Shown here: piece by piece, positions 52,350 through 55,763 of the stretch
Position numbering within the stretch: the first letter of the stretch is position 1
Layout of the letters: every line of letters begins with the position of its first letter
Origin: Bacteroidota bacterium
Lineage (GTDB): Bacteria > Bacteroidota > Bacteroidia > CAILMK01
DNA: 64,000 bases
NCBI GenBank assembly: GCA_013288555.1
Contig: JABDBQ010000009.1
Span: 1,391 to 65,390 of the forward strand
Direction of reading: 5' to 3'
Made by a program: the position numbers and the translations under genes
Notes under the pieces: model-generated
Database searches by the model: none
What the model was told of the DNA's origin: nothing
What the model saw: only the letters and a program-made list of their open reading frames with translations

Positions 52350-55300
52350 TTACACCACTACGTTCACAATCTTTCCTGGGACAACAATAATCTTTTTCAG
52401 AGGGTTGCCATCTGTCCATTTTGAAAGATCCATGTTTTTGATTTCATCTTCAACCTGCTCTTTGGAGAGACTTAAAGGCAATTCAATTTTAGCACGCAGT
52501 TTACCATTGACAGATACCGGATATTCAAAACTGTTTTCGGCGGTATAGCTTTCGATATAAGCAGGATAGGGGGCATAAGCCACAGAAAGACTGTTGCCGA
52601 GTTTTTCCCATAATTCCTCTGCAATATGGGGTGCAAATGGCGAGATCAATATCACCAGCGGCTCCAGTATCTCCTTTTTATGACATTGGTATCCACCCAG
52701 ATCATTTACGGCAATCATTAATGAACTGACGCATGTATTGAGATTGAAACGCTCTATATCATCTTCTATCTTTTTGATGGTTTTATGAAGGGTTTTCAGT
52801 TCTTCGGCATTGGGTTTATCTTCATTTACCAGCCAGTTCCCATCCCGGTCATAAAACAGTCCCCAGAAACGCTTCAAAAAGCGGCTTACCCCATCTATAC
52901 CCTTGGTATCCCAGGGTTTTGATTGTTCTATCGGCCCCAGAAACATCTCGTACATCCGGAAAGCATCACATCCATATTTTTCAATCACTTCATCCGGGTT
53001 GATGACATTGTATTTGGACTTAGACATTTTTTCGACTTCGGACTTTGTTCTGAATTGATCTGAGCCTTCTCCGGTTTTAGTAAAATTACCATTTTGCCAA
53101 AAACCACCTTCACATTTAAATATGAAATCCTTATAATCTGTTCTCCATTTAATAAATGCATCTATGTCCAAAATCGAATTATCCACTAATGAAACATCAA
53201 CATGAATTTCTCTTGTATCATCCTTTAATAATTCTGAACTGATAAAATAATAATTCTCTATACCCTGATCATTTATTCTTTTATCAAGGCTTATTTTTTG
53301 TGATACTCCTTGTATCATCCCCTGATTAATCAATTTCTTAAACGGCTCTTTGGTGCTTACCAGGCCCCTGTCAAACAAAAACTTATTCCAGAACCGGGAA
53401 TAAAGCAAATGCCCTGTAGCATGCTCGGCGCCTCCGATATAGAAGTCAACATTTTTCCAGTATCGCTCTTTGTCTTTGTCAACAAAATCAAAGTCATTAT
53501 CAGGATCCATATACCTCAGATAATACCATGATGAACCTGCCCATCCCGGCATGGTGTTCGTCTCGCGGCGGCCATCAGGTGTGTTTACCCATCTATCAAC
53601 GGAGGCAAGTGGAGATTCTCCGGAGCCGGTGGGTTTATAGCTTTCTACTTCAGGCAGTTCAACCGGTAATGCATCAAAAGGAACAGGATAGGGGAGACCA
53701 TTTTTATATACAATCGGGAAAGGCTCACCCCAATAGCGCTGCCTGCTGAAATTGGCATCACGCAAACGATAATTTGTCTTCATTTTTCCGAGTCCGTCCA
53801 GTTCTATTTCATTGATAGCACGTTTTATGGCCTGGTCAACCAGTAAACCATTCAGGAAGTCAGAGTTTACCAGGTAGCCTTCCTTGGCATCATAACTGGC
53901 TTCTTCCACATTTCCGCCCTCCACGACTTCAATTATCGGCAGGTTGAAATGTTTTGCAAAAGCCCAGTCCCGGCTGTCATGTCCCGGTACGGCCATAATG
54001 GCCCCTGTACCATAATCTCCCAGAACATAATCAGCAATCCAGATGGGAATTTCTTTTCTTGTAAAAGGATTTATCGCATAAGCCCCTGAGAAAACACCAC
54101 TTACTTTGGTTTCGGCCTTTCTTTCCCTTTCAGATTTTAATTTGGCTTGGGCAACATATTTTTCAACCTCAGATTTTTGGTCCTGACTGGTAATAACAGA
54201 AACAAGTTCATGTTCAGGCGCGAGAACCATAAAGCTGGCACCAAAAATAGTATCAGGGCGGGTGGTGAAGATGCGGATTTTCGCCTCACCCCCAGCCCCT
54301 CTCCCCGAGAGAGGGGAGCCAGAGTCAGACGTACTTTGTACGTCTTCCGTATTCTCAGCCCCGAACCTCCCTTGCATTCCCCCCCCCTCCATCGGAGAGT
54401 GGCCGGGGGTGAGGCCATTTGCCAGATTAAGCCTTTCTTTGATTTGTATTAGAACATTTTCCAAATCGTTAATCACTTCTTCATTGGTGAACCTGATAAC
54501 ATCGAACCCAATTTGGTTAAGGATTGAAGTCCTGAATTCGTCTTGTTCCTTTTGTGAGTTGTGAATTTCGCCATCAACTTCAACAATCAGTTTTTTTTCA
54601 AGACAAACAAAGTCAGCGATATATTTATCAATGGCATGTTGCCTCCGAAACTTGAAACCCATTTTACTGTTTCTCAGCGCTTCCCATAATATTTGTTCTG
54701 CCTCCGTTTGTTCTTTTCTGTTTGTGCGTGCATTAGTTTTTAGCGTGCCCCAAATTGTTTTATCGGAGGTCATGTATCCTGGGTCATTCGCCTCACCCCC
54801 GGCCCCTCTCCCAGGGAGAGGGGAGCCAGAGTCAGACGTACTTCGTCCGTCTTCCGTATTCTCAGCCACGAAAGTCCCTTGCATTTCCCCCCTCTCCATC
54901 GGAGAGGGGCCGGGGGTGAGGCGAAAATCAACCTCTGCCCCTACTGATTTTCCAATCCAGTTGGTCTGCATGTCTTTTACCGCCTGTGGCCAGTCGATAT
55001 CATTAAGATCTTGCAAGAGTCTGTCGGCATAAGCGGTGATGCGCAAAAACCATTGTCTCATTTTACGCTTTTCAACAGGGTATCCACCACGCTCGGAAAC
55101 ACCGTCTTTTACTTCCTCATTGGCAAGCACTGTTCCAAGAGCTTCACACCAGTTCACTTCACTCTCGCCAATATAAGCCAGTCGGTAATCCATTAATATT
55201 TTCTGCTGTTCCGCTTCGCTGAAATTGTTCCATTGCTCGGCAGTAAAATAAGTATTGCCATTCTTTTCAAAATCCCTGATCAGGTCATTAATATGTTCAG

Positions 55301-55763
55301 CACAGTTGGTTTTCGGATTGTACCAGCTTTCAAACAACTGGATAAAAATCCATTGCGTCCATTTGTAAAATTTGGGGTCTGAGGTTTTTACTTTTCGGCT
55401 CCAGTCGAACGAAAGACCAATCTTTTTCATCTGGTCTTCGTATCGTGCGATATTTTTATCTGTAAAACCTTCAGGATGGTTTCCGGTATCAATAGCAAAC
55501 TGTTCTGCAGGCAACCCAAAGGCATCATAGCCCATGGGATGCAGTACTTCAAATTGCTTGTTTCTTTTAAAACGCGCCACGATATCAGAAGCAATATATC
55601 CCAGCGGATGCCCTACATGGAGGCCTGCACCTGATGGATAGGGGAACATATCAAGCACATAATACGGCGGTTTTTCGGGGTTTTCTGTGGCTTTAAAAGT
55701 CTCATTCTTTTCCCAGAATCGTTGCCATTTCTGTTCTATTTCATTCGGGTTATACTGCGGCAT
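52350..55763 (-). CDS. leuS: Leucyl-tRNA synthetase carrying a 218-codon in-frame foreign insertion
   Basis: Contains the class I HIGH variant (HVGHPLGY), the KMSKS motif (EKMSKSKYN) and TTRPDT at the CP1 entry. It is 1137 aa, or about 919 aa once the insertion is removed. Confidence 0.9.
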   Translation of the reverse strand: MPQYNPNEIEQKWQRFWEKNETFKATENPEKPPYYVLDMFPYPSGAGLHVGHPLGYIASDIVARFKRNKQFEVLHPMGYDAFGLPAEQFAIDTGNHPEGFTDKNIARYEDQMKKIGLSFDWSRKVKTSDPKFYKWTQWIFIQLFESWYNPKTNCAEHINDLIRDFEKNGNTYFTAEQWNNFSEAEQQKILMDYRLAYIGESEVNWCEALGTVLANEEVKDGVSERGGYPVEKRKMRQWFLRITAYADRLLQDLNDIDWPQAVKDMQTNWIGKSVGAEVDFRLTPGPSPMERGEMQGTFVAENTEDGRSTSDSGSPLPGRGAGGEANDPGYMTSDKTIWGTLKTNARTNRKEQTEAEQILWEALRNSKMGFKFRRQHAIDKYIADFVCLEKKLIVEVDGEIHNSQKEQDEFRTSILNQIGFDVIRFTNEEVINDLENVLIQIKERLNLANGLTPGHSPMEGGGMQGRFGAENTEDVQSTSDSGSPLSGRGAGGEAKIRIFTTRPDTIFGASFMVLAPEHELVSVITSQDQKSEVEKYVAQAKLKSERERKAETKVSGVFSGAYAINPFTRKEIPIWIADYVLGDYGTGAIMAVPGHDSRDWAFAKHFNLPIIEVVEGGNVEEASYDAKEGYLVNSDFLNGLLVDQAIKRAINEIELDGLGKMKTNYRLRDANFSRQRYWGEPFPIVYKNGLPYPVPFDALPVELPEVESYKPTGSGESPLASVDRWVNTPDGRRETNTMPGWAGSSWYYLRYMDPDNDFDFVDKDKERYWKNVDFYIGGAEHATGHLLYSRFWNKFLFDRGLVSTKEPFKKLINQGMIQGVSQKISLDKRINDQGIENYYFISSELLKDDTREIHVDVSLVDNSILDIDAFIKWRTDYKDFIFKCEGGFWQNGNFTKTGEGSDQFRTKSEVEKMSKSKYNVINPDEVIEKYGCDAFRMYEMFLGPIEQSKPWDTKGIDGVSRFLKRFWGLFYDRDGNWLVNEDKPNAEELKTLHKTIKKIEDDIERFNLNTCVSSLMIAVNDLGGYQCHKKEILEPLVILISPFAPHIAEELWEKLGNSLSVAYAPYPAYIESYTAENSFEYPVSVNGKLRAKIELPLSLSKEQVEDEIKNMDLSKWTDGNPLKKIIVVPGKIVNVVV
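54280..54416. repeat. Palindromic GC-rich module A
   Basis: TTCGCCTCACCCCCAGCCCCTCTCC...GGAGAGTGGCCGGGGGTGAGGCC. This is a direct copy of module B. It has internal hairpins (CCCCTCTC/AGAGGGG and AGACGTA-CTTTG-TACGTCT). Confidence 0.8.
54417..54773 (-). other. DUF559 (Vsr-like, PD-(D/E)xK endonuclease) domain-coding core, fused into the leuS frame
   Basis: MTSDKTIWGTLKTNARTNRKEQTEAEQILWEALRNSKMGFKFRRQHAIDKYIADFVCLEKKLIVEVDGEIHNSQKEQDEFRTSILNQIGFDVIRFTNEEV. It retains its own ATG but has no stop codon. Confidence 0.75.
54788..54929. repeat. Palindromic GC-rich module B
   Basis: TCGCCTCACCCCCGGCCCCTCTCC...GGAGAGGGGCCGGGGGTGAGGCGA, with 23-nt perfect terminal inverted arms. Confidence 0.8.

Follow-up and report, generated by a model that had tools for sequence, protein, structure and literature searches.

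Inteins with a homing endonuclease lie in frame at conserved sites of essential proteins, keep the nuclease within the host polypeptide, are patchily distributed, and recur at the same site in different lineages. REP/RAYT systems (repetitive extragenic palindromes with REP-associated tyrosine transposases, also known as REPINs) and the IS200/IS605 elements consist of a nuclease gene flanked by short hairpins, accompanied by many hairpin copies without the nuclease; RAYT and TnpA are HUH Y1 enzymes, and REPs are extragenic. Vsr-like (EDxHD) homing endonucleases include I-Bth0305I (PDB 3R3P) and form a family found in fractured genes (PMC2677866). An insert in a DNA methylase gene of phage ShiLan is neither an intron nor an intein; it has no stop in the host frame, encodes an endonuclease and shows a homing-like distribution (PMC11855218). 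Rickettsia palindromic elements (RPEs; Ogata et al. 2000, as summarized in PMC10969869) are palindromes of ~100-150 bp that lie in frame in unrelated housekeeping genes and are translated, leaving the host protein intact. Here, we analyze a 64-kb stretch of DNA (the window; contig JABDBQ010000009.1 of a Bacteroidota bacterium), in which leuS, the gene for leucyl-tRNA synthetase (LeuRS), carries an in-frame insert made of a nuclease domain of the DUF559 family between two G+C-rich palindromic modules. In our preferred reading, to which we assign a probability of roughly 0.55, this is a selfish insertion in leuS, a DUF559 nuclease cassette between G+C-rich hairpins that is intein-like but non-splicing and spreads by a homing-type process. 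The element is probably an undescribed, widespread variant of in-frame selfish nuclease elements; the literature that we searched contained no description of DUF559 in frame within housekeeping genes, nor of the repeat that forms the module arms.

The leuS insert and its nuclease domain

Pfam recognizes the tRNA-synt_1, editing and anticodon domains of LeuRS in the leuS product, plus a complete DUF559 domain. The insert (Table 1) is composed of two modules, A and B, which enclose the nuclease cassette and are direct repeats of each other (136 nt at 92% identity, with a spacing of 507 nt; 126 of 139 positions, or 91%, are identical over the full length). In leuS, module B encodes RLTPGPSPMERG...SPLPGRGAGGEA; folded as single-stranded DNA, it reaches -50.2 kcal/mol (z = -9.9), and each module is a strong long hairpin. 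The host flank extends the palindrome further (54274-54282 with 54922-54929). The cassette contains an internal ATG (54770-54768) and has no stop of its own, reading instead into module A. Only one of the six frames is open across the whole insert, namely that of leuS, because the DUF559 open reading frame (ORF) itself lies in the leuS frame; the DUF559 core has a G+C content of 0.38 and stops in all five other frames. A search of the window for further module copies returned modules A and B only, and three other G+C-rich islands, considered as candidate copies, turned out to be ordinary Gly- or Pro-rich coding DNA. No tRNA lies near the insert. A possible Vsr-type CCWGG site in the arm loops was dismissed, as only one arm of module B has it and it lacks conservation.

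Table 1. Coordinates of leuS and of the parts of its insert in the window
Feature	Position	Strand	Description
leuS (leucyl-tRNA synthetase), 1137 aa, carries the insert	52350..55763	-	ORF; TIGR00396 leuS_bact, E = 1e-289
In-frame insert, 642 nt, 214 codons, LeuRS residues 281-494	54282..54923	-	Absent from LeuRS relatives of 72-76% identity; DNA boundaries uncertain by 2-3 nt
Module B	54787..54925		Upstream in leuS; imperfect palindrome, arms 37 nt, 95% complementary
Module B, arm	54787-54823
Module B, private spacer	54824-54888
Module B, arm	54889-54925
DUF559 nuclease cassette, 368 nt	54419..54786	-	Pfam domain about 54429-54743
Module A	54280..54418		Downstream in leuS; direct repeat of module B
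Module A, arm	54283-54316
Module A, spacer	54317-54381
Module A, arm	54382-54415
Host flank extending the palindrome	54264..54282		Inverted repeat: gattttcg here, cgaaaatc at 54922-54929

The domain encoded by the insert belongs to the DUF559/Vsr-fold nuclease superfamily and has a Vsr-type, restriction-endonuclease-like fold. It matches PF04480 (DUF559) almost from end to end (E = 4.4e-37 to 3e-36; profile positions 3-108 of 109) and NCBIfam PRK09767 with E = 1e-21, below the cut-off of that model; DUF559 and MTES_1575 are the only Pfam families found in the insert. All 16 invariant columns of the family are kept (16/16), including D58, E69, D71, and H75, and the domain is predicted to be active as a nuclease. 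The DUF559 profile matches PDB 3HRL with E = 7e-33 and the catalytic domain of I-Bth0305I (3R3P) with E = 5e-6. An AlphaFold2 (AF2) model of the domain has a predicted local distance difference test score (pLDDT) of 88.9, and its Foldseek template-modeling (TM) scores are 0.84 to 3hrl, 0.66-0.75 to 3r3p, and 0.42-0.46 to 1vsr, with a probability of 1.0 for the I-Bth0305I-type fold. Foldseek also returned proteins of the Toxoplasma and Tetrahymena mitochondrial ribosomes (9i05, 6z1p, and 9g6k; probability about 1.0), and this structural likeness suggests that DUF559-fold domains have been recruited into mitoribosomes. Searches of phage and plasmid collections yielded three weak phage protein matches and one 41-nt plasmid match, too few and too weak to point to an obvious vector.

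Whether the insert reaches the finished enzyme bears directly on its nature. A scan of positions 53800-55400 against Rfam detected no intron or known RNA, only sub-threshold hairpin matches of the miRNA type, and Pfam detected no Hint or intein family in the insert, the junctions of which (F/RLTP and GGEA/KIRI) offer neither a Cys, Ser or Thr nucleophile nor a His-Asn pair. Lacking the features of introns and inteins, the insert is most likely retained in both mRNA and protein, that is, it is most likely translated as part of LeuRS. The opposite case would be that the insert is removed before the enzyme matures, as an unrecognized intron, intein or ribosome-bypass element whose paired hairpins join the ends. 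The predicted RNA fold has the geometry that this would call for, with the outer arm of module B paired to the outer arm of module A, the inner arms paired to each other and the DUF559 ORF looped out (z = -10.9). We nonetheless regard removal as very improbable: apart from the missing intron and intein signatures, the host frame is open over 214 codons here and also in 54 of 80 related loci (see below), which removal at the RNA level would not maintain. The 642 nt are, moreover, far beyond known bypass gaps, that of T4 gene 60 being 50 nt (bioRxiv 10.1101/2022.08.31.505936).

Stop codons, base composition and the arm repeat

The first-pass annotation of this DNA had noted that the modules are nearly free of stops in most frames and had proposed that such an element could enter ORFs without truncating them, which would explain its survival inside leuS. 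Its counts were accurate. The plus strand of 54788-54929 has a single stop, the TGA at 54917, and the minus strand has three TGAs (first bases 54864, 54834, and 54795), all in one frame, so that four of the six frames are open; the four ORFs that it named are in the ORF list together with their peptides. Module A has the same stop pattern as module B. As a special property of the modules, however, stop-poverty did not hold up. Dinucleotide-preserving shuffles of each module served as the null model, and at least four frames were open in 9.6-10.3% of the trials for module B and in 4.5% for module A, whereas four or fewer stops were seen in 24-26% and 12% of the trials, respectively. Since composition-matched shuffles are about equally stop-free, composition accounts for the stop pattern without evolved stop avoidance. 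It is only against the host background, with its G+C content of 40%, that the modules stand out: random 139-nt segments of the window have a mean of 1.3 open frames, and at least four are open in 0.7% of them.

The same holds at the level of the family. Among 29 arm-spacer-arm modules, comprising 27 from other genomes and the two of the window, there was no surplus of open frames. Outside long ORFs, the modules total 17 open frames versus 14.8 expected (z = 0.8); those within ORFs have 41 versus 30 expected, of which 19 are open by ascertainment, and correction leaves 22 versus about 25. The 36-nt arm unit itself contains one stop, versus 0.39 expected. The low stop content of the modules is thus a by-product of their G+C-rich hairpin composition; it permits read-through, and we find no support for stop avoidance having evolved beyond what such a hairpin brings with it. 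Composition alone can make a sequence compatible with coding DNA, which limits how far the earlier argument can be taken. Its compatibility part stands, in that modules can indeed reside in ORFs without truncating them, though for a broader reason than had been proposed. As an explanation for survival in leuS, openness of the modules is likewise compatible with the coding context, yet incomplete: the insert as a whole has one open frame only, which runs for 214 codons, and it sits in a short, variable turn framed by invariant residues.

The repeating unit is also smaller than the 139-nt module that had been taken as the element. What recurs elsewhere is only the arm of ~36 nt, which consists of GCCTCACCCCCNGCCCCTCTCC, a short loop, and GGAGAGGGG, and of which each module has two. 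The 22-mer GCCTCACCCCCNGCCCCTCTCC is present at at least 120 loci in species-representative genomes, and the hosts among the matches listed belong to Bacteroidota, Chloroflexota, Armatimonadota, Acidobacteriota, Planctomycetota, Xanthomonas, Myxococcales, and Burkholderiaceae (about eight phyla). The arms of the window are 94-97% identical to those of other loci, and the remainder of the module is unmatched; its 65-nt spacer has no match in 201 fetched loci and is, on this ground, private to the window lineage. Solo modules also exist at other loci.

Tabulation of the other copies by ORF context and frame, which the first-pass annotation had recommended, shows arms in ORFs at the random rate and in five frames. 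Of 30 arm-spacer-arm modules, 16 (0.53) lie in a stop-free frame that extends at least 300 nt to either side, versus 0.52 for random segments of the same loci; hence, the repeats do not avoid coding DNA. Long ORFs contain 87 of 188 arms, and all five stop-free frames are used: LTPxPSP (34 arms), GRGAGGEA (25), GEGxGVR (20), ASPPAPL (10), and PHPxPLS (8). The sixth frame, with its TGA, is used by none of the in-ORF arms. Pfam confirmed the host in 7 of the 10 in-ORF cases tested, namely an ABC ATPase, MutS2, GltB, carbamoyl-phosphate synthase, a rhamnosidase, an ABC-2 permease, and a transglutaminase-like protein. Pro, Gly, Ser, and Ala abound in all five translations, and, judged by this composition, the arm peptides are linker-like.

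No direct target-site duplication was seen around 64 arm pairs. Instead, the flanks tend to extend the palindrome with copy-specific bases, by up to 16 nt in L003 (L003:6433-6639; likewise L019, L010, L118, and L114), and it looks as if the elements are centered in palindromes that already existed or copy their target in the inverse direction. Arms also occur in tandem arrays with a 42-45-nt period (L068:67-223, L102:34-100, L122:1-131, and L130:2747-2937); in L122, three arm copies lie upstream of a DUF559 domain and are read as PHPNPLSEGEGLNS repeats.

Recurrence at one LeuRS codon and in other housekeeping genes

The insertion site lies between the positions of residues 235 and 238 of Thermus thermophilus LeuRS, in a beta-hairpin turn at the entry to the editing domain. 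In the window protein, this short variable turn is bracketed by the invariant F280 and F499-TTRPDT. LeuRS relatives of 72-76% identity lack the insert and have a loop of 8-11 aa at the site. The closest relative (P0122, 86-88% identity; contig L121) carries a single module without DUF559, with the same outer junctions as in the window (GTTGATTT, then, across the junction, AGCCTCACC ... GAGGCGAAAATCCGCAT). The leuS flanks of the two are 83-85% identical in DNA. The modules of the window are only 70-73% identical to this solo module while being 91% identical to each other, indicating that the module was duplicated, or the cassette arrived, after the two lineages had separated. In distant LeuRS lineages (56-60% identity), an arm-DUF559-arm insert follows the same Phe and precedes FTTRPDT, and we collected 25 LeuRS sequences with DUF559 at this very codon (LeuRS site 1). 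The distribution is patchy: of 106 close relatives in which the site is recognizable, the loop is short in 93, and an insert of more than 60 aa is present in 7.

Several further observations concern LeuRS loops. In two next relatives with "empty" sites, P0123 (L202:201-2996) and P0124 (L203), the loop between F and IRIFTTRPDT is of normal length (10-11 aa) and resembles arm remnants: AGC ACC GCC GGC TCC GGT GAG GCT matches the outer left and right arm ends at 19 of 20 nt, and CCG GGT CAG GCG, also in next relatives, resembles CCGGGGGTGAGGCG. Such loops may be scars of a lost module, or they may represent an ancestral target that resembled the arm ends. P0134, a LeuRS of 1057 aa, bears at site 1 a G+C-rich insert of 65 aa that consists of arms only, as well as a second arm-type insert (FDLTPSPSPKERGAS...) in its C-terminal half, so that one gene can hold several. 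Three LeuRS proteins of about 1040 aa (P0195, P0199, and P0239) have a different in-frame insert of ~110 aa in the leucine-specific region (..EYKDGRRKFDFY..ELIVEIK..); it gives hints, all below threshold, of a relation to restriction-endonuclease-like families (DpnII-MboI, E = 0.01; SfsA, E = 0.07) and may represent another type of nuclease housed in LeuRS.

Part of this picture could arise without a currently active element. The insert would then be an old, now neutral in-frame expansion of a LeuRS loop that is inherited vertically and decays, its stop-poor modules would be an uninformative by-product of composition, and no element would be active in this lineage today. The shuffle tests, none of which was significant, agree with this explanation, as does the divergence of DUF559, which exceeds that of the host flanks and covaries with it weakly; the solo module of the closest relative and the possible arm remnants of the next ones would fit a progressive decay. 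Neutral expansion does not, however, readily account for a nuclease domain that has kept its 16 invariant positions and matches the Pfam model end to end, for a module duplication or cassette arrival that post-dates the split from the closest relative, or for long inserts in 7 of 106 close relatives. We consider it improbable.

Evidence beyond LeuRS came from the 80 closest DUF559 relatives in metagenome contigs, picked regardless of arms. The domain is flanked on either side by a long ORF (at least 240 nt) in the same frame in 54 of the 80 loci, fused on one side in 11, and free-standing in 15. Pfam identifies the domains split by DUF559 as those of RecG, MetH (at two sites), MetRS, IleRS, ValRS, LeuRS (at a second site), acetyl-CoA synthetase (Acs), iPGM, and TGT, and protein searches added fusions with TsaB-like proteins, RecJ, Gmk, RNase H, and chorismate synthase. 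Fixed sites besides that in LeuRS are found in ValRS, MetRS, IleRS, RecG, and MetH. By eye, the junctions lie a few residues from conserved motifs (FTTRPDT, ATTRPET, DVWFDSG, WFDAPIGY, DEQHRFG, and GDVHDIGKN). For 36 of 49 DUF559 domains, the nearest neighbor occupies the same host site, as it does for 21 of the 25 at LeuRS site 1; in these sequence comparisons, DUF559 lineages follow the host site. Near-identical DUF559 copies in different genes were not found in the sample, the best identity across sites being about 0.6.

Arms accompany the nuclease in a part of these loci, with a consensus left arm upstream and a consensus right arm downstream of DUF559 in 16 of the 80. Arm-like peptides are present in 23 of 120 DUF559 proteins, versus 0.2 in shuffled controls. 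The family is large: in a protein library clustered at 50% identity, 10,425 clusters match DUF559 at E <= 1e-10, and 61 of the best 150 are at least 250 aa long (about 40%). Two free-standing copies deserve separate mention. In a high-G+C genome (L198), two complete palindromic modules, which are direct repeats of 95% identity (L198:698-830 and 1248-1380), flank a free-standing DUF559 gene; the context is unrelated to that of the window, but the unusual module-DUF559-module layout is the same. In a Prevotella metagenome-assembled genome (L022:1354-2143), a free-standing arm-DUF559-arm unit lies exactly between etfB and etfA; its right arm supplies the initial codons of EtfA (MSTQ..TPLSPGRGAGGEA), and EtfB contains one more solo arm, also in frame.

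The breadth of host enzymes also bears on whether DUF559 was recruited for a function of the host, for instance as a nuclease or nucleic-acid-binding domain linked to LeuRS or to defense. An intact domain on a surface hairpin of the editing domain is what one might expect of recruitment. But the same domain is nested at different sites in more than a dozen unrelated enzymes and is missing from most close LeuRS relatives, and PADLOC defense families gave no significant match (best E = 0.002), leaving recruitment with hardly any likelihood in our judgment.

Mode of spread and relation to known elements

The selfish in-frame insertion that we favor would work as follows. The host ribosome would read through the element; with the insert translated, the nuclease would in consequence be expressed as an extra domain of LeuRS, on a surface beta-hairpin turn, and the arms would become linkers rich in Pro, Gly, Ser, and Glu (LTPxPSP..ERG and SPL.GRGAGGEA). 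The element would thereby borrow the promoter and the translation of an essential gene, much as an intein endonuclease does, without splicing. Spread would take place by homing, whereby the nuclease cuts an empty site and the break is repaired from an occupied copy. Later decay would leave nuclease-less hairpin remnants, and the solo module of the closest relative may be one such. Recurrence at a single LeuRS codon, together with sister elements beside conserved motifs of other enzymes, points to site-specific spread of the homing type. Both homing and the direction of decay are part of this proposal, in which modules without a nuclease may be either decay products or non-autonomous derivatives.

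A number of findings weigh against this reading. Occupied and empty leuS genes were compared between species only, with no same-species alleles or co-conversion tracts among them. At LeuRS site 1, the DUF559 domains have a mean identity of 0.46, below the 0.59 of their host flanks; the two identities are weakly correlated (rho 0.32), and that of DUF559 is the higher one in 13 of 231 pairs, so that, judged by these comparisons, the LeuRS data fit old vertical inheritance with loss about as well as homing. That the insert is translated is deduced from sequence only. The full-length AF2 model is confident for the LeuRS core and the two strands that flank the insert and models the insert with low confidence (residues 286-491, the only such region), owing to a shallow alignment in that region. 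For homing, an endonuclease has no need of conserved terminal repeats, and yet the arms are 94-97% identical across phyla, versus about 50% for the nuclease proteins. No DUF559 lies near 113 of the 120 arm loci listed. Finally, simple homing does not account for a whole module being duplicated on both sides of the cassette, an arrangement found in the window and, independently, in L198.

The most serious competitor makes use of several of these findings. In a REP/RAYT-like process, or one akin to that of MITEs (miniature transposable elements with inverted repeats), the arms or modules would be the mobile entity, and DUF559 would recognize them and move them by cut-and-paste or by copying, in cis or in trans, without site specificity; selection would then retain only those copies that are in frame in a tolerant loop or lie in intergenic DNA. 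Arms that are far better conserved than the nuclease are what a relation of the transposase-and-ends or REP/RAYT type predicts, and the many nuclease-less arm loci suit it equally. So do the recurrence of hairpin-nuclease-hairpin units, among them free-standing copies that have a start and a stop of their own (L022, L198, and the 15 of 80 loci), the tandem arm arrays (L068, L102, and L122), and the module duplication; the random rate of location in ORFs fits unselective insertion followed by filtering. The behavior of the flanks cuts both ways: the combination of palindrome extension and no direct target duplication favors such a process, whereas the missing duplication in 64 arm pairs, taken by itself, speaks against it. 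The modules share with MITEs inverted arms of 34-37 nt on a transposase-less unit of 139 nt; the direct target-site duplication of MITEs was not found around those arm pairs, and the copy number is two modules in the 64-kb window. Also against it are the results on DUF559 itself, since near-identical copies do not occur across genes, lineages track the host site (36 of 49), and the exact same LeuRS codon is occupied in 25 sequences, which random insertion and filtering would not predict. We also know of no Vsr-fold enzyme that acts as a transposase. On balance, a REP/RAYT-like or MITE-like process appears rather unlikely. Movement of the element would be homing-like, to judge from same-site recurrence, with several facts favoring an arm-directed, REP/RAYT-like process.

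A broader proposition, to which we give a little less than even odds, is that the insert exemplifies a widespread and undescribed class in which DUF559 with its linker-arms invades short loops of essential enzymes (class I tRNA synthetases, MetH, RecG, TGT, and others), beside their most conserved motifs and in several phyla, becomes an extra domain of the host protein and decays to scars. If so, nuclease parasites of essential genes would have a third way to persist besides introns and inteins, namely by being tolerated as a domain on a surface loop. The class would explain thousands of odd DUF559 fusions and the "PSPxGEG / GEGxGVR" segments in annotations. It would be a tangible origin of loops and linkers newly acquired by conserved enzymes, with hairpin scars turning into ordinary-looking protein loops, and it would define a family of small nucleases with conserved housekeeping targets, a prediction that is directly testable.

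Comparison with the systems introduced above shows partial likeness to each of them. With RPEs, the modules of the window share the state of in-frame palindromes in housekeeping genes, a likeness in behavior only. RPEs occur in Rickettsia only and lack an associated nuclease gene, whereas the arms described here are G+C-rich, 36 nt long, and distributed across phyla, often bound a DUF559 ORF, lie beside conserved motifs and, in the window, belong to a Bacteroidota-like host. Membership in the RPE families was rejected, there being no sequence similarity. The arrangement of a nuclease flanked by hairpins, with further hairpins scattered without it, recalls REP/RAYT and IS200/IS605; however, the fold of the enzyme here is that of Vsr, and the hairpins occur equally often within genes and outside them.

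Like inteins, the window element lies in frame at a conserved site, is patchily distributed and recurs in distant lineages. Unlike inteins, it has neither a Hint domain nor Cys/Ser/Thr or His-Asn junctions, presumably stays in the protein, and carries a DUF559 nuclease rather than one of the LAGLIDADG or HNH families. The Vsr-like homing enzymes have a catalytic fold related to that of DUF559 and are selfish occupants of conserved genes; they are found within group I introns or inteins, or stand alone between the halves of split genes, mainly in phages, and possess extra DNA-binding regions, whereas the window domain of ~120 aa is fused directly into the host protein. The closest published concept is the ShiLan insert, which is likewise non-splicing, nuclease-carrying and stop-free. 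Its HNH nuclease is out of frame with the phage host gene and has no hairpin arms (PMC11855218), whereas the DUF559 nuclease of the window is read in the frame of its host gene, has relatives in bacterial housekeeping genes, and is enclosed by G+C-rich hairpin arms.

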